Numbered from the stretch's first letter, positions 1,972-17,744 are shown. The stretch is DNA of 64,000 bases from Bacillota bacterium (GCA_044426085.1 JAWXUU010000005.1:40598-104597), one strand, 5' to 3'. Made by a program: numbers and translations. The notes: a model not told the origin generated them from the letters alone.

Positions 1972-2360
1972 TGAAAGATTTTTTTGAGGGATTGTATTCA
2001 TATTTGCGAAACCACCCAAACCTAAAAGGTGTGTTCGGTGAAAGAATATACCCAGCAGTTGCCGCTCAAAATGTAAGCTATCCCATTATTGTTTATAACA
2101 GTATTGGGGTGTCATATGATAAGAACTTGCAAAAGGAAAGTGGCTTCGTGAGGCTCACAGTGCAGTTCTCTGTCGTGGATAATTCATTTGCAGGTGCAAG
2201 AATAAATTGCAAACGGCTCAGAAAAGCACTGAAAGATTTCCACGGAGATATGTCAGGTGTGTTTATTGAAGCCGTTCACACAGTTTCAGATGAAATTGAA
2301 ATCAACGAAGAAAATGAATACATGGCAATTCTAGAAATGGAATTTATGTATAAAGAATAG
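1971..2360 (+). CDS. Tail completion protein (DUF3168-like)
   Basis: ATG 1971 overlaps the upstream TGA (ATGA) and AGGAG lies 5 nt upstream. Position and size fit. Confidence 0.55.
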   Translation: MKDFFEGLYSYLRNHPNLKGVFGERIYPAVAAQNVSYPIIVYNSIGVSYDKNLQKESGFVRLTVQFSVVDNSFAGARINCKRLRKALKDFHGDMSGVFIEAVHTVSDEIEINEENEYMAILEMEFMYKE

Positions 2361-2370
2361 GAGGAAACAA

Positions 2371-2775
2371 ATGGCAATAGCAGGTAAAAATGGCAAATTG
2401 CAGATTGGAGATAGCACTCCAATCACAGTTGTTGGTATCAAGAATTGGTCACTAGATCTATCACTTGACACGCTTGATACGACAACACTTGGAAAAGATT
2501 GGAAAGAATATATAACAGGCTTAAAGGAATGGTCGGCATCAGCTGACGGTGACTTTAACATTCACACGGATACTACTGGTCAAGAGGCATTGCAAAAAGC
2601 ATTTCTTGAGGGAACAACTGTCAAGGTATATTTGTATGTTGACGGAGTGCATGCATATGTCGGTGATGCGTATGTTTCGAGTTTATCGATTGAAGATCCA
2701 GTCGATGATATCGTGAGTGTTTCGATTGACTTCACAGGAAGTGGAGAAATAACGTTTGGGGGAGATAGCGAATAA
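2371..2775 (+). CDS. Major tail (tube) protein
   Basis: 134 aa, immediately upstream of the chaperone pair and the tape measure gene. The N-terminal pattern AGKNGKLQIGD...WSLDLSLDTLDTTTLG is typical of TP901-1/phi13-type major tail proteins. Confidence 0.75.
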   Translation: MAIAGKNGKLQIGDSTPITVVGIKNWSLDLSLDTLDTTTLGKDWKEYITGLKEWSASADGDFNIHTDTTGQEALQKAFLEGTTVKVYLYVDGVHAYVGDAYVSSLSIEDPVDDIVSVSIDFTGSGEITFGGDSE

Positions 2776-3080
2776 TGAAAAAAGGTGTAAGCATACAGCT
2801 TGATAAAATAAGAATGTTGAGATACGGCATAAATGCACTTGTGATCGTGGAAGAACTGACAGGAAGAGCAATCACAAAACTTGATTTGAAAAACATTTCA
2901 ATCAAGGATTTGAGAACGATTGTCTATGCGGGTTTGTCGCATGAAGATAAGGATTTGACACCAGAAAGTGTGGGTGAGATTATCGACACATATTCTGATA
3001 TAACCTACGTGGCAGAAAAAGTTGGCGAAGCGTTCTCGCTTGCATTTGGAAAAGGAGATAAAACCGCCCCAAAGAAGTAG
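2775..3080 (+). CDS. Tail assembly chaperone (G-like)
   Basis: ATGA overlap with the major tail gene. Canonical position before the tape measure gene. A slippery site lies near its 3' end. Confidence 0.75.
   Translation: MKKGVSIQLDKIRMLRYGINALVIVEELTGRAITKLDLKNISIKDLRTIVYAGLSHEDKDLTPESVGEIIDTYSDITYVAEKVGEAFSLAFGKGDKTAPKK
3068..3074 (+). promoter_or_regulatory. -1 programmed ribosomal frameshift heptamer C CCA AAG
   Basis: The heptamer follows the X XXY YYZ pattern in the zero frame of 2775-3080, 4 nt before its stop codon. The -1 frame is open from 3062 through 3382. Confidence 0.75.
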
Positions 3081-3382
3081 ACTTCTCTCTGCAAGATTTT
3101 GTGGAGTCGGTGCTTGGAAGTTTGGATATCAATGTGTTTGAAGTCTACGACATGACGCCAAAAGAATTGCTTCTAAAATCAAAGCAGTTGCAAGCAATGG
3201 GGAGAGAGCAACTAAAACAAGACATTTCAGTCGCATACTTTGCAGAAAGATTTACAAGAAGCAAAAAACTTCCAAAGCTAGACAAAATCTTGAAAGGCGT
3301 GGATAAACCCACGGCGAAAACAACCAGCGTTGGTGACATGGTTCTAAAAGCAATGGCAAAGGAAAAGGGGGTGGAAATCTAG
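3074..3382 (+). CDS. T-like extension of the tail chaperone (made as a G-T fusion by -1 frameshift)
   Basis: This ORF is in the -1 frame relative to 2775-3080 and ends 1 nt before the tape measure start. No convincing RBS precedes the GTG 3101 given in the ORF track. Confidence 0.65.
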   Translation, partial: EVDFSLQDFVESVLGSLDINVFEVYDMTPKELLLKSKQLQAMGREQLKQDISVAYFAERFTRSKKLPKLDKILKGVDKPTAKTTSVGDMVLKAMAKEKGVEI

Positions 3383-5458
3383 TTGGCAGTAATAAGAAAT
3401 CTAGTTGTTAAGATAACGGCGGATATTGCGGATTTGAACGAGGCACTCACTTCGGCACAAACGGCGCTAACGAAAGCATCGGCGGAGTTTGGCAGAATTG
3501 GTAGCACGCTGACAACTTCAATAACAGTTCCACTTCTAGCAATTGGAACGGCGGCAGTCAGCGTTGCGGCAAGTTTTGAGCAGTCAATGGCAAATGCGGC
3601 ATCAGTTTCAGGTGCAACGGGTGATGAACTCGAAGCAATGACAGAGCTTGCTCGTGAGATGGGAACTACGACAGTGTTTTCTGCAAGCGAGGCGGCAGAT
3701 GCAATGTATTATATGGCATCGGCAGGATATAAAGCAGAGCAAATGGCGGAATCGCTAGAGCCTGTACTTGACCTTGCTGCGGCAACTCAAGCGGAACTTT
3801 CGTTTACAACCGACACAGTGATATCAACACTGAATCAGTTCGGACTTGAAGCAAGTGATGCATCGAGAGTGACAAACACGTTCGCTGCGGTTATTGGTAA
3901 TTCACAAGCCACAATAGATAAGCTATCCGATTCAATGACGTATGTTGCACCAGTTGCAAATGCACTTGGATATTCAATCGAAGAAACAACTGCGGCACTT
4001 GGTATTATGTATAATGCAGGTTATGAAGGCAGTCAAGCAGGAACAGTTTTGAGATCAGCTTTATCAAAACTTCTTGACCCAACAACTGACATGACAAACA
4101 CTCTTGCGGAAATGGGTTTGACATATGACGATGTGAACCCTGAAACAAATGCCTTTGCAGATATCATTGCAAATCTTGAGGGCGCAAGCATGACAGCAGC
4201 GCAGGCTGTTGCAATATTTGGAACAGAGGCAGGGCCTGGTATGCTTGCAGTTATATCGCAAGGCAGTGAAGCACTTCTTGAAATGGAAGCAAACATAACA
4301 GATACAACTGCGGCAAGCACAATGGCAGCAGTGCAACTTGATACGTTCGAGGGGTCACTCAAACTTTTGCAATCACAGCTTGAAGAAGTCGCAATCAGTA
4401 TTGGTGATGTTTTGATACCAAAGATAACCGCACTAATAGAAAAATACGTGACACCACTCATAGAAAAATTCAATAGTCTATCCGAAGAAAGTATAGAATC
4501 AGCCGTTCAAATAGGACTTATTGCAGCCGCAATCGGTCCTTTATTTTTGGCAATTTCCAAGGTTCTCAAGCTGATGGCAACATTCATTCAGATTGCAAAG
4601 CTGGCATTTTCACCGCTAACGATAAAAATAGCGTTGATAGTGGCGGCAGTTGTTTTGCTTGTGAGCGTGTTCAAAAACCTATATGCGACAAACGACGAAT
4701 TCAAAGAGAGTGTGGATAGTTTGCTATCTTCACTTGAGCCTATACTTGAACAGTTACAAGTGCTTGGCACGCTTGTTATGGCCACAGTGGCTAAGCTGTT
4801 TGAGATGATCTATCCACTACTTGTGAAGATTGGGGAGTTTCTTCTTATATATATTGTGAACAACATGCAAGCAATGATGCCAGTTATTGAAGTTCTGCTG
4901 TCAGCGTTTATAAGCCTTTTCAGTGGAATTATAAAACTGCTTGATGGTGACTTTAAGGGAGCGTTTGAAGATTTCAAAGACTTCTTCTCTTCTTTGTGGG
5001 AGGGGATTTGGATGTATTTGAAAGTTGTTATCAACAATATGATATCACTCGTGAATGGATTTTTGAGTTTGGTTGGTATAGGAATAAACTACCTTATTGG
5101 CAGTTTGAACAGCTTGCAGATTGATATCCCAGACTGGGTTCCGGGGATTGGTGGTGGCACATTTGGACTTAGTATTCCAGAAGTGACAATGCCACAAATA
5201 CCAATGCTTGCAAGCGGTGGTGTGATACCAGCAAACAGCGAGTTTCTTGCAATCCTCGGTGACCAAAAGAGCGGAACAAACATCGAAGCTCCACTAGACA
5301 CAATGGTATCAGCTTTCAAAACAGCTGCAAGCGAAATGCAATCAGGCACGTCGCAGGGCGATATAAGAATCACATTCGATGGAACTTTGGCAGCACTGAT
5401 AAAATTGCTTGCACCAAAGATAACGCAAGAGCAGAGAAAAATGGGTGTGCTGAAATAG
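3383..5458 (+). CDS. Tail tape measure protein
   Basis: 691 aa, alpha-helical and Ala-rich at the N-terminus, with a hydrophobic central segment. Canonical position after the G/GT pair. Confidence 0.85.
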   Translation: MAVIRNLVVKITADIADLNEALTSAQTALTKASAEFGRIGSTLTTSITVPLLAIGTAAVSVAASFEQSMANAASVSGATGDELEAMTELAREMGTTTVFSASEAADAMYYMASAGYKAEQMAESLEPVLDLAAATQAELSFTTDTVISTLNQFGLEASDASRVTNTFAAVIGNSQATIDKLSDSMTYVAPVANALGYSIEETTAALGIMYNAGYEGSQAGTVLRSALSKLLDPTTDMTNTLAEMGLTYDDVNPETNAFADIIANLEGASMTAAQAVAIFGTEAGPGMLAVISQGSEALLEMEANITDTTAASTMAAVQLDTFEGSLKLLQSQLEEVAISIGDVLIPKITALIEKYVTPLIEKFNSLSEESIESAVQIGLIAAAIGPLFLAISKVLKLMATFIQIAKLAFSPLTIKIALIVAAVVLLVSVFKNLYATNDEFKESVDSLLSSLEPILEQLQVLGTLVMATVAKLFEMIYPLLVKIGEFLLIYIVNNMQAMMPVIEVLLSAFISLFSGIIKLLDGDFKGAFEDFKDFFSSLWEGIWMYLKVVINNMISLVNGFLSLVGIGINYLIGSLNSLQIDIPDWVPGIGGGTFGLSIPEVTMPQIPMLASGGVIPANSEFLAILGDQKSGTNIEAPLDTMVSAFKTAASEMQSGTSQGDIRITFDGTLAALIKLLAPKITQEQRKMGVLK

Positions 5459-6954: not shown

Positions 6955-9184
6955 TGATGTGGCAGTAGTTGATGGATATTATTCCATCAGCACAAACTTA
7001 CTGCCAAAAAACACAATAAAGAAAGTGGACATAGTGCAAAACAACGTGTATTCGCAATCCGACACCACGGAAGCTGAGGGAAGCATTACTCCGAGTGATT
7101 GGTCGCAAACCGATGACTCTACAAACAGTTCGCTACTAACAAGCATGGGATTTGCAAGTGTGGAATTTCAAGACAAGGTGGAAGATGAGATGAACTACTA
7201 TCCACAGCCAAACAGTTCGTATGGAAATATTTCAATGCGAAAGGACTCTACGTCATTTTCGCTTGGCAATCTCAATTCGGGGGAATATACAAAAACCGAT
7301 ATGCTCAAAATTGGAGATGTCACATATTTTCTTGCGGGAAACAAAACCTATCCGTATTTTGATTTCAGAACAATCCAAGATGACGTTGTCACAAAGATTG
7401 ATGTTTCAAGCGTTGCGGGAAATATCAATTCCAAGGTTTGGGCGGTTGCACTTTCCAACGTGGATAGCAAAATATATATTGCGCTTGCAACGGAAAGCAG
7501 TCCATACCTAGTTTTGCTAAGCTATGAAAACGGCACGTTTGGGGTGGTAACGCAAACGTGGAGCAGTGGATTGACTAGAAGAATGACAGACGTAAAAATG
7601 AAAGGAACTCAAGGCATTGCATGTCTTGAAAGCACAAGTTCATCAAAGAACTTTATTGTGTTCAGTGTGACTGGCAATTCTTATGAATATAAGGATAGCA
7701 ACATCAGTGGCTACTATCCAATGTGCGTTGGTTTCTTGCCATATGATAACAGCTATGGCGTTATGGGTGGTTGTAGCACGCTTGACCAATATGCAGGCTC
7801 GGCAACCTATCAAACAGATGAGCCGTATCGGTTTTATTATAACGGAAGCTATCACAATATTTTCTCTTCGTCATATGATGATGGAACATACACGGCGTTT
7901 GACAGTGCAAGCTACACAATAAATGGCAAAACATACCATGCACTAATAGTTATCTATGGCAGTGCAATAAGGGTTTTTTGTTTGGACGGTAGCAGTACGG
8001 CGGATTATTGTTATTCGCTAACGCTGACAAATCTTGAAGATGACGATATAGATTTTGATATCACCAGTGGTTTTGAAAAGCTGAAGATAATAGATTATTC
8101 AATTTCAACAGAGAACTACACGGATATGAAATATAGAGCATATTTTTCTGTGCTAATTTCAGGGCGAAGCTATCACTCGACATTTGCACAATACTACAAA
8201 GACAGCAATGCATTCAGGTTTTCTATTGGATTTTCCACAGAGCCGTTTGGAAGCATATTCTACACAGCTTGCAAGCAGTGGGATTTATGGAGAAATTATA
8301 ATCAAAACTTTCATAATATATCTAGCACTGAGGATTATTGTGTTTATACCAATGCAAACTGCACGGCATCTGGTGGAGATTTTTCTAGTACAACTATATC
8401 TAGGATACAGATTGACGAAGAACAAACGGCAACATTAACCTATACTATGACAAATAAGTTCGCAGACCCTACGGCGGAAAACTTCAAAGTGGTGTTCAAA
8501 AACTTTTTGTGGTGGTCGAATATATCATATATAACGACAGGGCAAGTGAGTGTTTCAAGTCCGATTGGTGGATTTGAAGAAGTTGATGGTGTGAACTTTA
8601 ACCAAAACTATATTGATGTATCGGTGTTAATTTCATCGAGTGAAGTGAAACTGACTTTTCCAAATATGCTTATATACAGTACTGGTCAAATACTTTATAG
8701 CGGTGTAGATGCTGATGGTCTTGCGAGCAAAGATTATTTCAGCGGACTAAAATCGTTCGAGTTTTCAGTTGTTTATGGTGGTCTTACATATGAAGAGGTG
8801 CAAGTGGTTTTGGGTGATGAGAGCAACAGCGTTCAAGTTTACCAAATATCTGGCAACGGCTTTTATGAAACAGCGAGCCTATACGGTGCAGAGAATCTAG
8901 CTGAGCATAACGGAAATATTGTGCTAGAGAAATGGAGCAAAGGCAAGCAGTATCTAGAAATAGAGATTCCAGTCAAGGACTACTACAATGAAAGCGGAGA
9001 TTTGCTAGTTGGTGAAAACACAGCAAAGCAAGAGTTTGCGCCGTATGACAAATTTATATTGCAAACGAGAAAAGGCTATTCATTTGTATACGCAGATGGC
9101 TCGCCGAAAGTTTTTGAAATAAAGCAAATGACTTTTAGAAAGAAGGGTTATAAGTCAATGATACTAAAATGTTTGGAGATTTGA
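6944..9184 (+). CDS. Large tail-tip / receptor-binding structural protein
   Basis: 746 aa, overlaps the upstream gene by 11 nt. Ser/Thr/Tyr/Asn-rich, beta-rich composition typical of host-recognition proteins. Confidence 0.5.
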   Translation: MLDDDVAVVDGYYSISTNLLPKNTIKKVDIVQNNVYSQSDTTEAEGSITPSDWSQTDDSTNSSLLTSMGFASVEFQDKVEDEMNYYPQPNSSYGNISMRKDSTSFSLGNLNSGEYTKTDMLKIGDVTYFLAGNKTYPYFDFRTIQDDVVTKIDVSSVAGNINSKVWAVALSNVDSKIYIALATESSPYLVLLSYENGTFGVVTQTWSSGLTRRMTDVKMKGTQGIACLESTSSSKNFIVFSVTGNSYEYKDSNISGYYPMCVGFLPYDNSYGVMGGCSTLDQYAGSATYQTDEPYRFYYNGSYHNIFSSSYDDGTYTAFDSASYTINGKTYHALIVIYGSAIRVFCLDGSSTADYCYSLTLTNLEDDDIDFDITSGFEKLKIIDYSISTENYTDMKYRAYFSVLISGRSYHSTFAQYYKDSNAFRFSIGFSTEPFGSIFYTACKQWDLWRNYNQNFHNISSTEDYCVYTNANCTASGGDFSSTTISRIQIDEEQTATLTYTMTNKFADPTAENFKVVFKNFLWWSNISYITTGQVSVSSPIGGFEEVDGVNFNQNYIDVSVLISSSEVKLTFPNMLIYSTGQILYSGVDADGLASKDYFSGLKSFEFSVVYGGLTYEEVQVVLGDESNSVQVYQISGNGFYETASLYGAENLAEHNGNIVLEKWSKGKQYLEIEIPVKDYYNESGDLLVGENTAKQEFAPYDKFILQTRKGYSFVYADGSPKVFEIKQMTFRKKGYKSMILKCLEI

Positions 9185-9217
9185 AAGCAACTTTCAAATA
9201 AATGATAGGAGATATAG

Positions 9218-9916
9218 ATGAGTGAGTGGATAAGTGAAAAATTAGCCACCGATGATATAAACAGTGGCAATCAGTTTGGCACAGCGAGTAACACATGGAC
9301 ACTTGAAGAAATCAATGCATTTATTTGTGGCATTTTATATGCGCAGCAAAACGCAGATGATGCAAAAGAGATAGCAAGTGGAGCAGGTGAAACTTCAGCT
9401 AGTGCAGAAAGCCTAGCAACGGCAGCTAAAGAACTTGCTGAATCAGCTGTGGCAACAGCTACATCAGCTAAAAGCAGTGCAGAAAGTGCGGTGACAAAGT
9501 CGGAAGAAGCAGTGACCAAAGCGGACAGTGCGATTGAAATAGCAGGCTCGGCAAACACAAAATCTACCTTGGCGGTAGAAACAGCGGAAAGTGCAAACGA
9601 GAAAGCTAGTGATGCACTAAGTAAGGTGGAAAACTTTTCAGCTGAAGCTGTGGAAAACGGCGGTGAAATATCTGCAGAAGTAGAAACGCTTGAAGATGGA
9701 AACTTGAAACTAGTGCTGTATAACGCAAAAGGTGATACTGGAGAAAAGGGGGATAAGGGTGATGGCTCTATCCCCATATATAATGAACTCGGCGAGAACA
9801 CCGATGGCGCAATAAACCAAAAGGTCGTGACCGAAAACATAAACCAGATAAATGAAACACTAGCAACTGCCATTCTTGAAACCGACCAAATAAACATAAG
9901 TGGTGGGGAGGCATGA
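9218..9916 (+). CDS. Tail fibre/baseplate protein with an Ala/Ser/Glu coiled-coil and a short collagen-like GXY stretch
   Basis: Repetitive SAESAV/TAESA heptad-like region followed by GDTGEKGDKGDG. Confidence 0.55.
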   Translation: MSEWISEKLATDDINSGNQFGTASNTWTLEEINAFICGILYAQQNADDAKEIASGAGETSASAESLATAAKELAESAVATATSAKSSAESAVTKSEEAVTKADSAIEIAGSANTKSTLAVETAESANEKASDALSKVENFSAEAVENGGEISAEVETLEDGNLKLVLYNAKGDTGEKGDKGDGSIPIYNELGENTDGAINQKVVTENINQINETLATAILETDQINISGGEA

Positions 9917-9917
9917 T

Positions 9918-10520
9918 ATGGTGATTGAATTTAAAGGCAATAGTCCGAAAGTGAAATACTTCAGGCTAGGTGTTATCGGCAACAACAAGGTGGATAAACT
10001 TGAGTTTGTTATTGATAGATTTCAAGGAGATACCGACCTTGCTGACCACACTCCATATCTCAAAGTTCAAAGCAGAAATTTGGAGTGGGCAGATAAATAT
10101 TGGCTTGTGAATAACAGCAAAGATGAAACCAAGCTAAGGTTTATATATTCAATAACAGACATTCTCACTACGGAAAAAGCTGTTGATGTGCAGTTGTCTT
10201 TTGAAAAGCTTGTGGATGAAGATATTCTCGTGTGGCAAACAAAAACGTGCAACCTAGCTTTTGATGTGACGGTGAATGTTGGAGAAATTGTCGCAAGGAA
10301 GTATCCAGAAGTTCTAAAGAATATTGAAGTGGAACTGAGTGGCAAGATAACGGAATATACAAACCAATTCTTCTTTCCTAATGTTGGGGAAGAAAACAGA
10401 ATATATATTGATAAAGAAAACAACAGAATCTATCGGTACGATACCGAAGAAAACAAATACTACATCTGCGGTAGTGATTATACCGAGGTGGAAATTATAA
10501 ATTGTGGAGGAACAAATTAA
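9918..10520 (+). CDS. Tail-fibre module protein, unknown function
   Basis: GGGGAGG RBS ahead of ATG 9918, which lies 1 nt after the upstream stop. Confidence 0.45.
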   Translation: MVIEFKGNSPKVKYFRLGVIGNNKVDKLEFVIDRFQGDTDLADHTPYLKVQSRNLEWADKYWLVNNSKDETKLRFIYSITDILTTEKAVDVQLSFEKLVDEDILVWQTKTCNLAFDVTVNVGEIVARKYPEVLKNIEVELSGKITEYTNQFFFPNVGEENRIYIDKENNRIYRYDTEENKYYICGSDYTEVEIINCGGTN

Positions 10521-10521
10521 T

Positions 10522-11550
10522 ATGGCAAACAAAACAATGAACGTAACACTGCTTCTAAGAAACGATCCAGCATCGGTCTGGGAAAGTAGCAACCCAATTC
10601 TAGCGAAAGGCGAGATTGGTGTGGAAAATGACACGAGAAAATTCAAGTTCGGTGATGGAGTAACGGCATATAATTCACTAGCTTATGCAAGCAGTGGTGC
10701 TATCGAGGTGAATACAACTTCGCCACTCACAACGGATATTGGATATGACGTTGGTGCAATTTGGCTAAACACTACAACACAGCAACTGTATGTGTTGTTT
10801 GCATCGGACACAACAGCAACATGGATTGAAATTCCAAACGTAAGCGGAACAATCGATAAGGCAAACCAACTTGCAACTGCAAGAACATTCACGTTCGATG
10901 GAGCGGTGGTTTCAAACTCGAAATCTTTCGATGGTTCAGGCAATGTGACTTTCACTTTAGTGCTTGCAGGCTCAGGAGTGACAGCAGGAACGTATACAAA
11001 ACTCACAGTCAACGATAAAGGCATTGTGACAAGTGCAACAACATTGACAGCGGCGGATATCCCTGACTTGACACTTTCCAAAATCACCGACGCAGGAACT
11101 GCTGCGAGCAAAGATGTGGGAACGGAATCGGGGAATGTGCCAATCCTAGGAAGTGATGGCAAACTTGACACAAGTGTTATTCCATCCGTTGCAATGACCG
11201 ATGTTCACGTTGTTGCGAGTGAAACTGCAATGCTTGCACTAGAAGCTCAGCAAGGTGACGTGGCTGTGCGAACAGACCAAAGCAAAACATATATACTTGC
11301 AACCAACACTCCGGCAACACTTGATTCGTGGGTGCTATTGCAAACACCGGCAGATAGTGTCATTTCGGTGAATGGGAAAACAGGGGCGGTAACTCTCACA
11401 ACGTCAGATGTTTCGGAAGGTACTAACCTATATTTCACAACAGCAAGATTCGATACTGCGTTCGGTACAAAGAGCATTGCTGATTTGTCCGATGGAGATA
11501 CAGTTATGACAACGGCAGATGATATCACGCTCAATGGTGGCAATGCCTAA
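10522..11550 (+). CDS. Tail fibre protein
   Basis: GGAGG RBS. The N-terminal motif NDPASVWESSNPILAKGEIGVENDTRKFKFGDGVTAYNSLAY is the conserved phage fibre N-domain seen in HylP/Mtd-type fibres. Confidence 0.7.
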   Translation: MANKTMNVTLLLRNDPASVWESSNPILAKGEIGVENDTRKFKFGDGVTAYNSLAYASSGAIEVNTTSPLTTDIGYDVGAIWLNTTTQQLYVLFASDTTATWIEIPNVSGTIDKANQLATARTFTFDGAVVSNSKSFDGSGNVTFTLVLAGSGVTAGTYTKLTVNDKGIVTSATTLTAADIPDLTLSKITDAGTAASKDVGTESGNVPILGSDGKLDTSVIPSVAMTDVHVVASETAMLALEAQQGDVAVRTDQSKTYILATNTPATLDSWVLLQTPADSVISVNGKTGAVTLTTSDVSEGTNLYFTTARFDTAFGTKSIADLSDGDTVMTTADDITLNGGNA

Positions 11551-11987: not shown

Positions 11988-12506
11988 ATGACAAAACAAG
12001 ATTCTCTATTGATTTATAGAGGAGAGATGATAAGCAAAATAGCCGATGAGGGTTATTTGGGTGAAGATAAAATCCAAGAATTCAAGACTTTCATGGAAGA
12101 GAACTTTGCCACAACTGATGAAGTGAAAGCATTTGTGTATATCGAAGTAGTGAATGCGATTGCAATTTCTAAAGTTGAGGGTGATGGCCTAGAAACTAGC
12201 CTAGAAAATATGCTCAGCATCTTCGAGATGACACAATCAAAAGAAGATATAGTCACAGTTATATCCGCAATCAAAAGCATAAACAGCACAAGCTATACCG
12301 AAGCACAAGAGGAAATTGAACTGCTCAAAGAAACAACCTCAAACATACCGCATCTTGATTTGACAAGGGCGAGAATGCTCTTATCGGTGGCAATAGCAAA
12401 TAACGAGGTCGATGATATCAGAAGCTACACAACTTTACTAAGAGAATGTTCCGAAGTTGTGCAAGCGCAAAAAGATATCATGACATGGGAGAGTCAAGAT
12501 GTATGA
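11988..12506 (+). CDS. Hypothetical acidic protein in the fibre module
   Basis: GGAGG RBS; its 3' end overlaps the next gene by 8 nt. Confidence 0.4.
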   Translation: MTKQDSLLIYRGEMISKIADEGYLGEDKIQEFKTFMEENFATTDEVKAFVYIEVVNAIAISKVEGDGLETSLENMLSIFEMTQSKEDIVTVISAIKSINSTSYTEAQEEIELLKETTSNIPHLDLTRARMLLSVAIANNEVDDIRSYTTLLRECSEVVQAQKDIMTWESQDV

Positions 12507-13260
12507 GCAAGGTAGTATTATTTCTGCATCGGAAATAAACAGCCTTAAAGCCGAAGTGAAAGCGGAAATGTTGAGAAGAAGTTTGACAGGTTCGCTTTCT
12601 GCTTATGGTGGTACAAGTTGGGATTTTTCCGAAACACCAGTGAGTGGTGGAACTATCATGGAAGAACACTTCACTAAAATAAACACGCCAGTTGGGCAAA
12701 TAAACACAACTGGCTTGCCGACAGCAGAAGATTCCAAGTTCCCAGCACTTGATGGATTGAACGGAAAACTAGCCACGTATAAAAGCTATACAGGCCTTAG
12801 CAGTACAACGCATGGCTGTGTATCTTCTTGCAGTGGTCTTTGCTATTCATCTTGCACGAGTTGCACAAGCTGCACGGGGTGCAGTGGTTGTGGAAGTGGT
12901 TGTGCAAGTGGGTGTAGTGGCTGTGATGGATGTAGCGGTTGCGGAAGTGGTTGTGCGAGCGGATGCAGTGGTTGCGATGGATGTAGCGGTTGTGGCAGTG
13001 GCTGTGCTAGTGCCTGCGATGGCTGCGATGGATGTTCAGGCTGTGGAAGTGCCTGTTCAAATAGCTGTGATAGTAGCTGTAAAGGTGGCTGTGAGGGCGG
13101 TTGCACGGGCAGTTGCTCAAGCGGTTGCGTAGGCAGTTGTCAAGGTGGTTGCAATACTACTTGCTCAGGGACGTGCAGTGGTTGCTCGGGTTGTTCAAGT
13201 TGCACTGGTGGTTGCACAGGGTCGTGTGTAGGTGGTTGCTCGGGAGGTGTATTATTTTGA
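12499..13260 (+). CDS. Cys-rich repeat protein (~110-aa unique N-domain plus ~145-aa C-x2/3-C Gly/Ser domain with ~40 Cys)
   Basis: ATG overlaps the upstream gene. C-terminal sequence ...CSGCGSGCASGCSGCDGCSGCGSGC... I counted the Cys residues by hand. Confidence 0.8.
   Translation: MYEQGSIISASEINSLKAEVKAEMLRRSLTGSLSAYGGTSWDFSETPVSGGTIMEEHFTKINTPVGQINTTGLPTAEDSKFPALDGLNGKLATYKSYTGLSSTTHGCVSSCSGLCYSSCTSCTSCTGCSGCGSGCASGCSGCDGCSGCGSGCASGCSGCDGCSGCGSGCASACDGCDGCSGCGSACSNSCDSSCKGGCEGGCTGSCSSGCVGSCQGGCNTTCSGTCSGCSGCSSCTGGCTGSCVGGCSGGVLF
12886..13038 (+). repeat. 3 x 51-bp in-frame tandem repeat (17-aa unit GCGSGCASGCSGCDGCS) with degenerate flanking units
   Basis: Units at 12886-12936, 12937-12987 and 12988-13038 align by eye with a few substitutions. 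Confidence 0.85.
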
Positions 13261-13529
13261 TAAATATAAAAATTGATTGTGGATTATCTGAATATATTGA
13301 GAAATTGCAGTATGAAAAGAATACTGCAGAAAGAGAACTAAGGATTGCAAAAGCATTGGGTTTCAAAAAAGAAACAGTTTGTGCTGCTTGCAAGAGAGCA
13401 AAAGTGGCACAAGTGAAGTATGGCACAGCGTGTGAAGAATTTGGAAAAATGCTAACTGAGGCAATTCCAAAGCTGCAGCGTTGGAACTTGGATTTTCAGG
13501 CGCGGGAGGTGACTTATGAAACGTCTTGA
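13257..13529 (+). CDS. Small (90 aa) helical protein, TTG start, coupled on both sides
   Basis: GGGAGG at 13242-13247 lies 9 nt before TTG 13257, which overlaps the upstream TGA (TTGA). Its 3' end overlaps the rSAM start by 14 nt. The ORF track shows it only as the tail of a longer artefactual ORF, 13101-13529. Confidence 0.6.
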   Translation: MINIKIDCGLSEYIEKLQYEKNTAERELRIAKALGFKKETVCAACKRAKVAQVKYGTACEEFGKMLTEAIPKLQRWNLDFQAREVTYETS

Positions 13530-14775
13530 ACCATTCCACGATAAAATGGGTAGGTTGTACGGAGCAATGCCACTCAATGTGACACTGCAAGTAACGGAAG
13601 ATTGTAACTTAGCTTGCACCTATTGCTACCAATGCAGTAAGAGCAAAAATAGAATGACATTCGATGTTGCGAAGCAATTTGTCGATGAACTTATCAACGG
13701 CAACTATGATAACTATTTTGTGAAAGGTGAGCGTGATGGCTACATCTTCGACTTTATTGGCGGAGAACCGTTCCTTGAAATTGACTTAATTGATAGGACA
13801 ACAGAATATATTCTCAGAACAATGTTGGAGCGTGGCATGGACACATCAAAGGTGATGTTCAGCTTTTCTACCAACGGCACTCTATATTTTGAAGAGAAAG
13901 TGCAAGCTTACTTGGATAAATATTTTGAATATATCTCACTGAGCATAACACTTGATGGGAACAAAGCCTTGCATGATAGTTGCAGAGTATTTCACGATGG
14001 CTCAGGCAGTTACGACATGGCAGAAAAGGCAATGAAGCATTGGCAAGCTAAAGGCGGATACGTTGGCACAAAGCTAACAATTTGTCACGAGAACTTGCCG
14101 TATCTTTCGGAGGCTGTTATCCATATGCTAGGACTTGGTATCGAAGAACTGCACATGAATTGCGTGTACGAAGATGTATGGAAAGATGGCGATGCAAAAT
14201 TATTGTATCAGCAGTTGAAAGTGATTGGTGACCATATCATCGATAGAGGAAAAGATATTGCTGTATCTATGCTAAACAGAGAAAACTTTCAGCCACTTCC
14301 AGAAACGGAAACACAAAACTGGTGTGGCGGAGATGGAAGAATGATAGCTTTGGACTATGCAGGCAGAATTTTTCCATGCTTAAGATACATGGGTTCAAGT
14401 TTGAAAAATCAAAAACCATTTGAGATTGGAAGAATCGGCGAGGGAATTGCAAAACAAGAAAACTATTGCTCACGTTGCAGTGTTCTTTCTTGCATAACAC
14501 GTCAGAGCCAGTCACCAGAAAAGTGTTTGACTTGCCCAGTCGCAAAAGGTTGTGGGTGGTGTAGTGCGTATAACTATGATCTATTCGGAACTCCAAACAA
14601 GCGTGCAACATATCACTGCGAAATGCACAAAGCAACAGCACTTGCGAATGCGTACTATTGGAACAAGCGATTCATAGAATTTGAAGTCGGCTTGCCACGA
14701 GAAGAAGTGGAAAGCCTAATAGGAAAGGAAGAGGCAGAGTGCCTAAGGGAGGTAATATTTGGCAACAGTTACTAA
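13516..14775 (+). CDS. Radical SAM enzyme with a C-terminal SPASM-type auxiliary Fe-S domain (anSME / peptide-maturase-like)
   Basis: CNLACTYC (CxxxCxxC) at residues ~30-37. C-terminal Cys pattern: WCGGDG...GRIFPC, then CSRCSVLSC, CLTCPVAKGCGWC and YHC. Confidence 0.85.
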   Translation: MKRLEPFHDKMGRLYGAMPLNVTLQVTEDCNLACTYCYQCSKSKNRMTFDVAKQFVDELINGNYDNYFVKGERDGYIFDFIGGEPFLEIDLIDRTTEYILRTMLERGMDTSKVMFSFSTNGTLYFEEKVQAYLDKYFEYISLSITLDGNKALHDSCRVFHDGSGSYDMAEKAMKHWQAKGGYVGTKLTICHENLPYLSEAVIHMLGLGIEELHMNCVYEDVWKDGDAKLLYQQLKVIGDHIIDRGKDIAVSMLNRENFQPLPETETQNWCGGDGRMIALDYAGRIFPCLRYMGSSLKNQKPFEIGRIGEGIAKQENYCSRCSVLSCITRQSQSPEKCLTCPVAKGCGWCSAYNYDLFGTPNKRATYHCEMHKATALANAYYWNKRFIEFEVGLPREEVESLIGKEEAECLREVIFGNSY

Positions 14776-15124
14776 AATCTATAAAGGATATACAGTTAGA
14801 CTATCTGGCAGAAAGAAAGGGTGCATGTCATTCTTTGGCTATATCTCAATAGTGAGTTCAGCGTGGCACGATGTGTATATTCTAAACCATGAAATAGGTC
14901 ACGAAAGACAGCGTGCCAAATACGGCAATCTCAAAACTTTGTTCAAGGTTTATATCCCAAGTATCTTCGGATATTGGTGCAAAAATCTAAGCTATGAGGA
15001 CTACTATAAACAGCCGTGGGAAGCTGATGCAAATAAACTAGGTGGCAATGAGTATTGGGAAAATGACCAATACAATCCGCCTCTGACCGAAGATGAGATT
15101 GAGGAGGAAATTAGCAAAGGATGA
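14759..15124 (+). CDS. Small HExxH-motif protein (putative zinc metallopeptidase)
   Basis: TTG start 6 nt after AAGGGAGG, overlapping the rSAM 3' end by 17 nt. Motif ILNHEIGHERQ. Confidence 0.55.
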   Translation: MATVTKIYKGYTVRLSGRKKGCMSFFGYISIVSSAWHDVYILNHEIGHERQRAKYGNLKTLFKVYIPSIFGYWCKNLSYEDYYKQPWEADANKLGGNEYWENDQYNPPLTEDEIEEEISKG

Positions 15125-15417
15125 TTGAGATAGCAATCGGTATCGTGGCAAGTGTGACAGGTGGGTTCGCACTTTTTTTATTGCAAAGATATTTCAAAAA
15201 GAAAGAACGTCAAGATGAACTAAGAGATAGCAAAAAAGCGCGAGAAAACATACTTATAATTAAGAGTATTGATGCTATCGGAGATTTGACAGAAGCAAAC
15301 AGCATAGCACTTCGTGATGGAAAAACCAACGGAGAAATGCACGAGGCAATGGACCATTATGGTTCGGTGAAAAAAGAGATGTATATATATCTCTTGGAAC
15401 AAAATTCAAAGAAATAA
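15121..15417 (+). CDS. Small membrane protein (one N-terminal TM helix plus a charged helical tail)
   Basis: ATGA overlap with the upstream gene. N-terminus IEIAIGIVASVTGGFALFLL followed by a Lys/Glu-rich segment. Confidence 0.5.
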   Translation: MIEIAIGIVASVTGGFALFLLQRYFKKKERQDELRDSKKARENILIIKSIDAIGDLTEANSIALRDGKTNGEMHEAMDHYGSVKKEMYIYLLEQNSKK

Positions 15418-15561
15418 ATGTGAAAATACTTCGCACTGCTGCGTTAAGAGCAAATTTTTTCGGTTCACGTATTTTAATACGCTCGCCTCAAAAATTTCCT
15501 CTTGCCTTGCATTGCTCGCATTTTCGCATTTATTCAATATTAAAAATAGGAGTAAAATTTT

Positions 15562-15945
15562 ATGACAACAGAAATGATTCAAACAATAATTCAAACACTG
15601 CTAACAGCAGTAATCTTGCCACTACTAACATACGCAGGCGTGGCACTCAAAAATCTTATCGATGAAAAGATAAAAGACTCAACAGTTGCAAGATATCTAT
15701 CAAGCGCAACCGATGCCGTGGAAAATGCGGTTACTGCAGTAATGCAAACCTATGTTGCAAACTTAAAATACGATGATCTATTCGACGAAGAAGCTCAAAA
15801 AACAGCTTTCGCACTTGCAGTAGAAAAAGCAACACAATCAATAACAGTAGATGGCAAAGCTATCATAGCAGAACTATACGGTGACTTCGACACATGGCTA
15901 GCCGATAAAATCGAAGCAACAGTATATAAAGAAAACGCAGAGTAG
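15562..15945 (+). CDS. Holin (LL-H-family-like)
   Basis: AGGAG RBS. N-terminal TM segment IIQTLLTAVILPLLTYAGVAL plus an amphipathic tail, ~127 aa, at the end of the late operon. Confidence 0.6.
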   Translation: MTTEMIQTIIQTLLTAVILPLLTYAGVALKNLIDEKIKDSTVARYLSSATDAVENAVTAVMQTYVANLKYDDLFDEEAQKTAFALAVEKATQSITVDGKAIIAELYGDFDTWLADKIEATVYKENAE

Positions 15946-16352: not shown

Positions 16353-17744
16353 ATGGCATCAATAACGAAAAGAGAGAATAAAAAAGGTATCGCATATAAG
16401 ATACAAGTAAAAGTAAAAGACAAAGGTTCGGGCAAAGACATAGTGAAATCAACTACATGGCAAGTGCCAGCTGGCATGAACGCAAAGCAAGCTGAAAGGG
16501 CGGTGATAGTTGAAGCTGAAAAATATGAAGAGCAAGTGAAGAAAATGCTGTCAAGTTCAGCGGATATAGATAGTGATAGCAAAATCACATTTGCAAAGTT
16601 CGCGGAAATATGGCTTGAGAAATGCAAGCAAGAGAACAGTGAGATATACTATGTGAACTCAAGAAAATGTATAAACACAGCTAATCAATATATAGGTGGA
16701 TATAAATTGACTGAGCTGAGTCCAAGAATAATTCAAAACTTCTATGGAAAAATAGATATGCTGACAATGATCACATATAAAATCACCCCTCACGTGGATA
16801 AAATCCGAGAGGCAATGAAAGAAAAGAGCATGAGATTCACGGACATGAAAAAAGGTAGCAATAACTTCACTGTAACAACTGTGCTTAATGGTAAGCCTGT
16901 CAAGCTGCAAACAGCTGAGCGGGTAAGCGAAATTCTAGGTCGCAAGGTGGAAGAACTGTTCGATGTGGAGAAAACTGAAAAGCCGTACGCTCACGAAACC
17001 ATACACAAAGTGAAAAGAACGGTGAGAGCAATATTGGCACTTGCCAAAAAGCAAAGGCTTGTTGATGACAACTATGCAACAGCTGACTACATCACATTCC
17101 CTAAAAAGCCAAAGGTGGAAATTGAGCATCTCGATGATGTGGGTGCAAAGAGATTGTATCAGGCACTTGAAACATGCGACAACCCGCAAAAGAAAATAGC
17201 GGTGCTGATACCACTGCTGACTGGCATGAGAAAAGGCGAACTATGTGGACTAGAGTGGGAAGATATAGACTTTGAGAAATCTACCATAAGCATAAAACGC
17301 AGTAGAATATCCGTGAACACAGTGGGTGTGATAGATAAGTCGACTAAGACTGAAAGTTCGGAAAGAACCTTAACAATGCCAAATAGACTCAAGGAAGAAC
17401 TGCTAATCTACAAGGCATGGCAAGAGGCTAGAATAGACACATTCGGAGATAGATGGGAGAACTCAGGGCGAATACTCACATCGGAATTCGGTGGCAAAAT
17501 ACACCCAAGTGTGCCAAATGGTTGGCTCAACGATATAGTGAAAAAAGCAGGTCTGCCACACGTAACTATGCACTCGCTTAGGCACACTAACATAACCCTT
17601 CAAATAATGGCAGGCGTGCCACTGGTCACAGTAAGCGGTCGAGCAGGACACGCAAGAACCAGCACTACAACGGATATATACAGTCACTTCATAAAAAGCA
17701 GTGATAAAGAAGCTGCAGATAAGTTGGATAGTATATTCGGATAG
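16353..17744 (+). CDS. int: Tyrosine site-specific integrase
   Basis: C-terminal catalytic pattern HSLRHT...GHARTSTTTDIYSH (R..HxxR..Y) and an N-terminal SAM-like domain. GGAGG RBS. Confidence 0.9.
   Translation: MASITKRENKKGIAYKIQVKVKDKGSGKDIVKSTTWQVPAGMNAKQAERAVIVEAEKYEEQVKKMLSSSADIDSDSKITFAKFAEIWLEKCKQENSEIYYVNSRKCINTANQYIGGYKLTELSPRIIQNFYGKIDMLTMITYKITPHVDKIREAMKEKSMRFTDMKKGSNNFTVTTVLNGKPVKLQTAERVSEILGRKVEELFDVEKTEKPYAHETIHKVKRTVRAILALAKKQRLVDDNYATADYITFPKKPKVEIEHLDDVGAKRLYQALETCDNPQKKIAVLIPLLTGMRKGELCGLEWEDIDFEKSTISIKRSRISVNTVGVIDKSTKTESSERTLTMPNRLKEELLIYKAWQEARIDTFGDRWENSGRILTSEFGGKIHPSVPNGWLNDIVKKAGLPHVTMHSLRHTNITLQIMAGVPLVTVSGRAGHARTSTTTDIYSHFIKSSDKEAADKLDSIFG

Follow-up and report, generated by a model that had tools for sequence, protein, structure and literature searches.

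A putative maturation system for a cysteine-repeat protein in the tail-fibre module of a Bacillota prophage

In a 64,000-nucleotide stretch of DNA from a Bacillota bacterium (GCA_044426085.1 JAWXUU010000005.1:40598-104597), here called the window, a prophage carries three overlapping plus-strand genes that recur together in many other phages. Open reading frame (ORF) 1 (12499-13260) encodes a 253-residue protein composed of an N-terminal domain (N-domain) and a CXXX tail, ORF2 (13257-13529), which starts with TTG, a 90-residue partner protein, and ORF3 (13516-14775), hereafter the rSAM gene, a 419-residue radical S-adenosylmethionine (SAM)/SPASM maturase of the TIGR04115 family. We propose, with moderate confidence, that these genes constitute a three-gene protein-maturation system within the tail-fibre module, whose product is a fibre-associated protein with a crosslinked shaft. 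The tail of ORF1 is very probably the substrate of the enzyme, and there is about an even chance that the ORF1 product is a structural, fibre-associated protein.

The enzyme scores 429.7 bits against TIGR04115 (cutoff 350), a family named 'radical SAM peptide maturase, CXXX-repeat target family' in NCBIfam, and covers positions 4-359 of the 359 in the profile; it also matches PF04055, Fer4_12 and phrog_1802. The next-best families, which form thioethers or mature Cys-rich peptides, all remain under their cutoffs: the second-best, PapB (NF047865; 175.8 bits, cutoff 340), as well as CcpM (TIGR04068; 107.5, cutoff 500), the SCIFF maturase (TIGR03974; 90.7, cutoff 425) and QhpD. The original prediction, made from the sequence alone, had recognized a radical SAM/SPASM enzyme, and this assignment holds. 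The enzyme is a peptide maturase and not an anaerobic sulfatase-maturating enzyme: the model for the latter, TIGR03942, gives 56.3 bits against a cutoff of 349, and no sulfatase was found among the window genes scanned or in the Pfam annotations of L245-L248 (L numbers denote the loci compared with the window). Both the CNLACTYC motif and the SPASM cysteine set it had pointed out are present, the latter comprising seven residues (C270, C288, C337, C340, C346, C349 and C368), and the CxxxCxxC motif and all seven SPASM cysteines are invariant across 20 diverse homologs. As a side observation, the rSAM gene of some loci is split by inteins within CxxxCxxC at two positions, before the second cysteine in L182 (4825-7194; about 330 residues, with a LAGLIDADG-like segment) and before the third cysteine in L005 (10489-12237), L190 (4776-7176) and L008 (11594-12025); the window enzyme contains none.

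The tail of ORF1 (residues 107-253 plus the stop codon; 12817..13260, plus strand) comprises 147 residues, among them 40 Cys (26%), 40 Gly and 35 Ser, and its residues other than Cys are almost wholly Gly, Ser, Thr, Ala or Asp, with Asp at about 3%. About 40 cysteines in C-x2-C or C-x3-C spacing behind an ordinary N-domain had been anticipated, and indeed each of the 39 intervals between successive cysteines measures either three (16) or four (23) positions, a regularity that is far from chance. Within the coding region of the repeat, a tandem DNA repeat (12886..13051, plus strand) with a 51-nucleotide period, 3.3 copies and 80% matches indicates a recent expansion. Throughout the ORF1 family, which combines a conserved N-domain with a tail of variable length, the same spacing of three to four positions is kept; in 120 homologs, 73% of the spacings are CxxxC and 26% CxxC. 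The CxxC units have the form C-[S/T/D]-G-C, and in 85% of them the +2 position is Gly. CXXX tails contain no Lys or Arg.

The N-domain (residues 1-106; 12499..12816, plus strand) is a conserved helical domain with no assigned fold family. It has more than 880 homologs, which form a large unnamed family of proteins mostly about 200 residues long, and their alignment (A1) shows invariant K17, R27 and K60 within the motif LKAxVKAEMxRR..GS..Y.G..YDY..P..EH..K. AlphaFold2 models residues 10-70 with a predicted local distance difference test (pLDDT) score of about 90 and places helices at residues 10-26, 55-68 and 82-96. Comparison with the Protein Data Bank (PDB) by sequence and, using Foldseek, by fold gave no significant match for this domain, and a BFVD search with ORF1 returned uncharacterised homologs only. 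The hidden Markov models (HMMs) TIGR04114 and TIGR04117 did not match ORF1 even at E <= 10; some of its homologs carry PF27846 (tSAM_targ_Cxxx_rpt). The protein starts with MYEQGSIISASEINSLKAEV, and its sequence shows no visible signal peptide and no RR motif. In L205, the C-terminal domain of a 'swapped' carrier could be aligned with A1 over only 25 columns (probability 56%).

The family profile of ORF2 shows it to be a distant homolog of TIGR04116, a family named 'CXXX repeat peptide modification system protein': in an hhalign comparison, the profile of the ORF2 family (A4) aligned with TIGR04116 members over its full length (87 columns) at a probability of 94.7% and E = 5.9e-8. ORF2 itself matched no model in NCBIfam, Pfam or PHROGs and gave no direct match to the TIGR04116 HMM, and its family profile found nothing meaningful among PDB sequences. 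The family is divergent, with members of about 100 residues; a word-index search with ORF2 alone returned one near-identical protein, and an alignment query 38 unnamed proteins. Since its homologs begin with MKVEIKGELVDYIESLQYE, matching INIKIDCGLSEYIEKLQYE in the window, the start at 13257 is supported. In 160 of 185 loci, the rSAM gene has an ORF2 homolog directly 5' of it, and in seven (L185, L051, L031, L034, L149, L145 and L041) it is fused in frame to the N-terminus of the enzyme. The suspicion that the small coupled ORF is a partner of the enzyme is thus borne out by its conservation, these fusions and its relationship to TIGR04116.

The kind of partner appears to differ from what is known of other maturases. 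The closest solved structure to the enzyme is that of the SCIFF thioether maturase CteB (5WGG; E = 1e-19), with residues 22-373 aligning, over the radical SAM and SPASM domains, with CteB residues 99-440. The enzyme has no counterpart of the N-terminal ~98 residues of CteB, the region that carries its RiPP recognition element (RRE; RiPP, a peptide synthesized ribosomally and then modified post-translationally). In the prophage, the corresponding place would be filled by ORF2, a separate protein that is fused to the enzyme in some phages and has another fold: its AlphaFold2 model (pLDDT 93.6) consists of a beta strand, two long helices and a beta hairpin, and Foldseek retrieved nothing from the PDB below E = 0.3, all hits being generic helical hairpins. 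A PqqD-type recognition element is therefore not supported, either in the enzyme, which lacks the RRE-bearing region, or in ORF2, whose modelled helical hairpin and small sheet are not PqqD-like.

A survey of homologous loci, a check that the original prediction had suggested, showed the cysteine-rich gene and the rSAM gene together in nearly every case, whichever of the two the search started from. The locus sets comprise the best 80 of each scan and are biased towards relatives of the query. Among 79 IMG/VR loci retrieved with the N-domain, 73 contain an intact TIGR04115-like gene next to the target gene on the same strand; the others have a fragmented enzyme (2), lie at a contig edge (3) or lack the enzyme (L056), so that it is adjacent in 75 of the 76 evaluable loci. 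Conversely, 141 of 160 viral and metagenomic loci retrieved with the enzyme adjoin an ORF with at least eight consecutive cysteines at a spacing of 3-5, three have a shorter cysteine run and 15 are cut by contig ends; a CXXX ORF is adjacent in 144 of 145 evaluable cases, and the apparent miss, L201, turned out to contain a frameshifted CXXX copy. The order of the genes differs between loci (target-partner-enzyme or partner-enzyme-target), and the linkage is constant. After dereplication at 70% enzyme identity, 57 clusters remained, 37 of which contain the complete trio, and hundreds of matching stretches in IMG/VR show the system to be widespread. No conserved protease or exporter, and no other conserved gene, was found with the phage-type system.

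Several further observations concern these loci. In L056 (7597-8907), an N-domain/CXXX protein and a partial second copy are encoded, but the 8-9 kb to either side contain no radical SAM gene. A single enzyme is accompanied by two to five paralogous N-domain/CXXX proteins in L185 (2648-5500), L095, L083, L091, L146 and L148. Proteins of about 190 residues encoded between the ORF1 and ORF2 homologs in many loci were considered as a fourth component and rejected, as they show no detectable relationship to one another and are missing in the window. The module DNA had no match in 50,697 phage records, and a scan with the enzyme as a single sequence, too narrow a query, found no viral locus and, among genomes, L003 alone.

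The system lies, as predicted, between tail fibres and holin. The window begins within the late operon of the prophage, which is of the siphovirus type and encodes, in this order, head closure, neck, tail terminator, major tail, tape measure and distal tail proteins, followed by three fibre-like proteins, two with an Mtd_N fibre domain, all 5' of the module; 3' of it come the holin (phrog_13712), a small excisionase-like ORF and a tyrosine integrase. Comparable settings recur elsewhere. A myovirus-type prophage of the cultured Desnuesiella massiliensis (GCA_001403615, LN879456, ~163-166 kb) has the order sheath, baseplate J, gp48, fibre, CXXX system, holin and amidase, and in a siphovirus-type prophage the system directly follows a 1,373-residue collagen-repeat fibre. 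The position at the junction of tail and lysis genes is common to the window, L245 and L246, and in L001 fibre-like genes flank the system on both sides. The 57 clusters span contexts of the sipho-, myo- and podo-type, and the PHROGs matched most frequently by the genes nearest to the system are those named tail fibre, tail, minor tail or collagen-like minor tail. In the window, one fibre-like protein of 232 residues (9218-9916) combines an Ala/Ser/Glu-rich coiled region with a short collagen-like GDTGEKGDKGDG stretch and has weak matches to tail-fibre PHROGs.

The architecture of CXXX proteins also resembles that of fibre proteins. In proteins of about 800 residues, the CXXX module is N-terminal to two ALK/LTK glycine-rich domains (PF12810, E = 4e-102), and a lineage of 31 loci retains the N-domain and a constant repeat of about 235 residues, whereas the distal domain beyond them is in frame in some members and split off, replaced or lacking in others. 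Such swapping of distal domains, typical of receptor-binding fibres, fits structural proteins. In the L054-type cluster (L040-L081, L174 and L187; about 8970-10600; rSAM identity at least 70%), the ORF1 homolog keeps its N-domain and a ~235-residue repeat with 62 Cys, and the distal domain of about 190 residues is in frame in about 16 loci, encoded by a separate downstream ORF in seven, replaced by an unmatched tail of about 136 residues in two (L065, L069) and by a tail of 9-14 residues in the rest. Collagen-like fibre shafts, which directly adjoin the CXXX system in some loci, offer a parallel, since both are low-complexity, length-variable repeats in fibre-module proteins with swappable distal domains; the CXXX repeat differs in being based on cysteine with a period of 3-4 instead of Gly-X-Y and in having a dedicated modifying enzyme, and its structural role is a proposal.

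The system of the window is a phage version of a system that is curated in databases and uncharacterised. The original prediction had stated that no characterised phage tail module of this organization was known, which holds insofar as we found no published description, but the parts are already curated in NCBIfam and Pfam: the enzyme as TIGR04115, the repeat as TIGR04114 and PF27846, and the helper as TIGR04116. The classical system, found in the cellular loci L214 (5242-9709), L241 (4515-9535) and L242 (5476-9507), shares with the window the enzyme family, a target with a cysteine at every third or fourth position and a homologous partner of about 90 residues. Its operons encode one to three CXXX targets with signals for twin-arginine translocation (Tat) (TIGR04117, TIGR04114), TIGR04115, a second SPASM protein (TIGR04119, 'CXXX repeat peptide maturase'), TIGR04116, TatA and TatC, the assignment to Tat being based on a reading of the target sequences and on TatA/TatC matches. 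The version in the window, by contrast, is borne by a phage, lies in a tail-fibre module, has neither TIGR04119 nor Tat components and bears a novel 106-residue N-domain on its target; its enzyme scores 430 bits against TIGR04115, compared with 629 bits for classical members. TIGR04119 had no match among the window proteins scanned against NCBIfam (11988-15945), is absent from every phage-type cluster and was found only in L242 and L233, and Tat genes are confined to cellular loci. The Tat route exports pre-folded cargo. A dedicated TatA/TatC pair in the cellular branch is thus consistent with a product that is made rigid before export, implying that the modified cysteine-rich cellular products are exported in a pre-folded state.

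Since the nearest characterised relatives of the enzyme all make Cys-sulfur-to-carbon thioethers, we propose crosslinks of this kind, and by analogy a thioether is probably the chemistry of the ORF1 tail as well. PapB, the maturase of the ranthipeptide freyrasin, is likewise a SPASM enzyme and acts on repeated C-x3-acceptor motifs, forming Cys-sulfur-to-carbon thioethers (PMC12373016). Its target is a short peptide with six CxxxD motifs, whereas the target in the window has 40 Cys and little Asp and hence is not a CxxxD/E-repeat substrate of the PapB type.

We envisage that ORF1 starts out as an ordinary protein whose N-domain is helical and whose Cys/Gly/Ser tail is unstructured. The enzyme would then work together with ORF2, placed where other maturases hold their substrate-recognition domain; in processing the tail, the two would introduce numerous intramolecular crosslinks, most likely thioethers, and so make the repeat a rigid rod insensitive to redox conditions. 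The resulting protein would most likely be a virion-associated fibre or whisker component, with the crosslinked CXXX segment acting as its shaft, the N-domain serving as a dock or as the handle held by the enzyme and, in related phages, a swappable distal domain lying beyond the shaft. In favour of a structural product, we count the fibre-module context, the fusions, the lack of a signal peptide and the absence of a conserved protease or exporter. A crosslinked fibre protein was one of two readings originally offered for ORF1, the other being a RiPP-like product, and it is favoured by genomic context and domain fusions. As a broader and more tentative suggestion, gut phages and some jumbo phages, hundreds of them, might build part of their fibres from a cysteine-repeat rod with many crosslinks installed by a radical SAM enzyme.

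Several points weigh against a crosslinked fibre protein. ORF1 matches no family in Pfam, NCBIfam or PHROGs and, by sequence or fold, no known fibre or baseplate domain, and AlphaFold2 assigns its tail a pLDDT below 50 and models no structure there. Asp, the acceptor in PapB, is scarce in the tail, in which Ser, Thr and Gly dominate. ORF2 occurs with carriers both with and without the A1 N-domain, so that a specific 'leader' interaction between the N-domain and ORF2 is hypothetical. Literature searches retrieved no description of, or experiment on, the CXXX system or its phage arrangement. Moreover, the classical cellular relatives are not virion parts, their products being exported through the dedicated Tat system, the arrangement of precursor, small partner and radical SAM enzyme is that of a RiPP locus, and the slot between tail genes and lysis cassette is a classic site for cargo.

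The last three of these points bear on alternative explanations. ORF1 could be a RiPP-like precursor with an unusually long leader, in which the N-domain would serve as the leader for the enzyme complex and the cysteine-rich part, cleaved or not, would be no part of the virion and instead be released at lysis, where it might function as a bacteriocin, signal or protective polymer. We consider this unlikely. Gene layout, the NCBIfam name 'peptide maturase' and the exported products of the cellular relatives are all compatible with it, as are the jumbo-phage versions of about 130 residues with leader-like N-terminal parts of about 50 residues and the two to five paralogous CXXX genes per enzyme in several phages, which recall multi-precursor RiPP loci. 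However, the phage-type system has no conserved protease or exporter, ORF4 (see below) not being conserved with it, and the modified regions would measure 100-400 residues, far beyond the size of a RiPP core. Fusions to large globular domains and swapping of the distal domain fit structural proteins better, and fibre modules are where the genes are located, in some cases flanked on both sides by genes for fibres.

An improbable alternative is that the CXXX tail mainly binds metal, in the manner of a metallothionein or an Fe-S protein, for instance as a metal-stabilised fibre needle, and that the enzyme modifies it to a limited extent or in a different way. A tail with 26% Cys in CxxC and CxxxC spacing among small residues does resemble metal-binding sequences, a dedicated Tat export in the cellular relatives would suit cofactor-loaded proteins, and metal-binding phage fibres and spikes provide a precedent, such as the His-coordinated iron in the tip of the T4 long tail fibre. 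Nevertheless, the target is linked strictly one-to-one with a SPASM maturase, and the nearest relatives of this enzyme all make Cys-derived crosslinks, which suggests that the cysteines are consumed chemically, and nothing in the loci points to metal handling. Least probable of all is that the module is lysogenic-conversion cargo (a moron) of benefit to the host, unconnected with the virion and parked between tail and lysis genes: the tail/lysis junction occupied in the window, L245 and L246 is a common cargo site that also holds accessory genes such as ORF4, but ORF1 overlaps the upstream late gene by 8 nucleotides (a separate promoter was not searched for), the GC content of the module is like that of its flanks, and the system is conserved over 57 enzyme clusters in sipho-, myo- and podo-type phages, lies inside the fibre gene set in some loci and is carried by lytic jumbo phages too.

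The known roles of radical SAM/SPASM maturases concern small peptides and a few cofactors of enzymes; the apparent substrate here is a repeat of 150-400 residues in proteins of phage fibre modules. Should the tail be crosslinked and present in virions, phages of anaerobes would have in this system a new, disulfide-free means of stiffening or protecting their host-recognition organelle. A crosslinked fibre protein of this kind would be the first radical-SAM-crosslinked structural protein of a virion, a redox-inert fibre whose length could be tuned by repeat expansion, as well as a natural scaffold with 40 or more staples in a row, and it would assign a function to the curated but uncharacterised system TIGR04114-04119/PF27846. 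Cultured models are available in SPN3US-like Salmonella phages, Erwinia jumbo phages and the Desnuesiella massiliensis prophage.

The system also poses two annotation traps. Such prophage regions will be labelled by genome-mining tools as clusters for ranthipeptides or RiPPs, and gene callers read the repeat DNA in the wrong frame, as seen in deposited jumbo-phage genomes and in L201. In the window, the CXXX-coding DNA contains long spurious ORFs at 12812-13132 (plus strand), 12843-13106 (minus strand) and 13101-13256 (plus strand), whose translations are rich in Val/Ala or Pro/Gln/Leu and can mislead gene callers. The longer ORF called mechanically from 13101 is an artefact of this kind, as out-of-frame GGT-TGC (Gly-Cys) pairs yield repeated TTG codons. 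In the jumbo phages, unannotated CXXX genes of about 130 residues with 20-21 Cys and an N-terminus of MAIGLKELNNRL... or MAINLKDIQNRL... are found at ~1190-1483 and 1497-1898 in Salmonella phage SEGD1 (L244, KU726251) and at 1101-1490 and ~1500-1894 in Erwinia phage Caitlin (L243, NC_031120), just 5' of two radical SAM genes and beside a gene for a 'virion structural protein'. In their place, the deposited annotations list Val/Ala-rich ORFs in the wrong frame or on the wrong strand (SEGD1_169 and _170; Caitlin gp175 and gp176), and Caitlin gp174 is a 69-residue peptide with four CxxxC-spaced Cys at its end.

In the window, the three genes are part of a longer string of overlapping plus-strand ORFs that continues with ORF4 (14759-15124), a 121-residue protein starting with TTG, and ORF5 (15121-15417), a 98-residue protein with one N-terminal transmembrane helix. 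The five had been described as overlapping by 4, 14, 17 and 4 nucleotides, and these values and all coordinates proved correct, as did the 8-nucleotide overlap of ORF1 with the preceding gene (11988-12506), to which it is translationally coupled. Each of the five starts, both TTG codons included, has a Shine-Dalgarno sequence 7-13 nucleotides upstream (GGGAGG for ORF2, the rSAM gene and ORF4, GAGGAGG for ORF5 and GGGAGA for ORF1), and the GC content of the module shows no contrast with its flanks. The preceding gene encodes 172 residues; it matches no family and is assigned to the fibre module by its position, and it is not kept alongside the CXXX system in other loci.

The string had also been read as a single five-gene module, which did not hold up, as only ORF1, ORF2 and the rSAM gene are conserved and ORF4 and ORF5 lie outside the conserved system. 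ORF4 does contain the predicted HEIGH motif, is coupled translationally to the system and matched no model in NCBIfam, Pfam or PHROGs. Among about 240 loci, it is found only in L003, and an exhaustive HMMER scan of 1.8 billion representatives recovered 89 relatives of its domain, many of which are the C-terminal domain of RHS-repeat proteins. The C-termini of RHS-repeat proteins are the seat of polymorphic-toxin effector domains, and for this reason we regard ORF4 as an accessory gene and rejected it as leader peptidase of a system with which it is not conserved; its product might be a lysin of an unusual kind or an accessory protein resembling a toxin. ORF5 matches phrog_9428 (E = 3e-24) and, weakly, P21 holin S, and other phages encode its homologs some 6 kb away from the CXXX system; it probably belongs to the lysis region. 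No recognisable endolysin is encoded beside the holin in the window (14759-15124, 15121-15417 and 15562-15945) or in L003 (808-1862), and in the related prophages L245 and L246 the holin is followed by an amidase.

L003, from a metagenome-assembled Bacillota genome, is the closest relative of the prophage, with 93% protein identity across the aligned part. It shares the string of rSAM gene, ORF4, ORF5 and holin, which is then followed by two large serine recombinases (2140-5292), as opposed to the tyrosine integrase of the window (16353-17744). The integration module has thus been exchanged between the two, and the late/lysis module has been kept.

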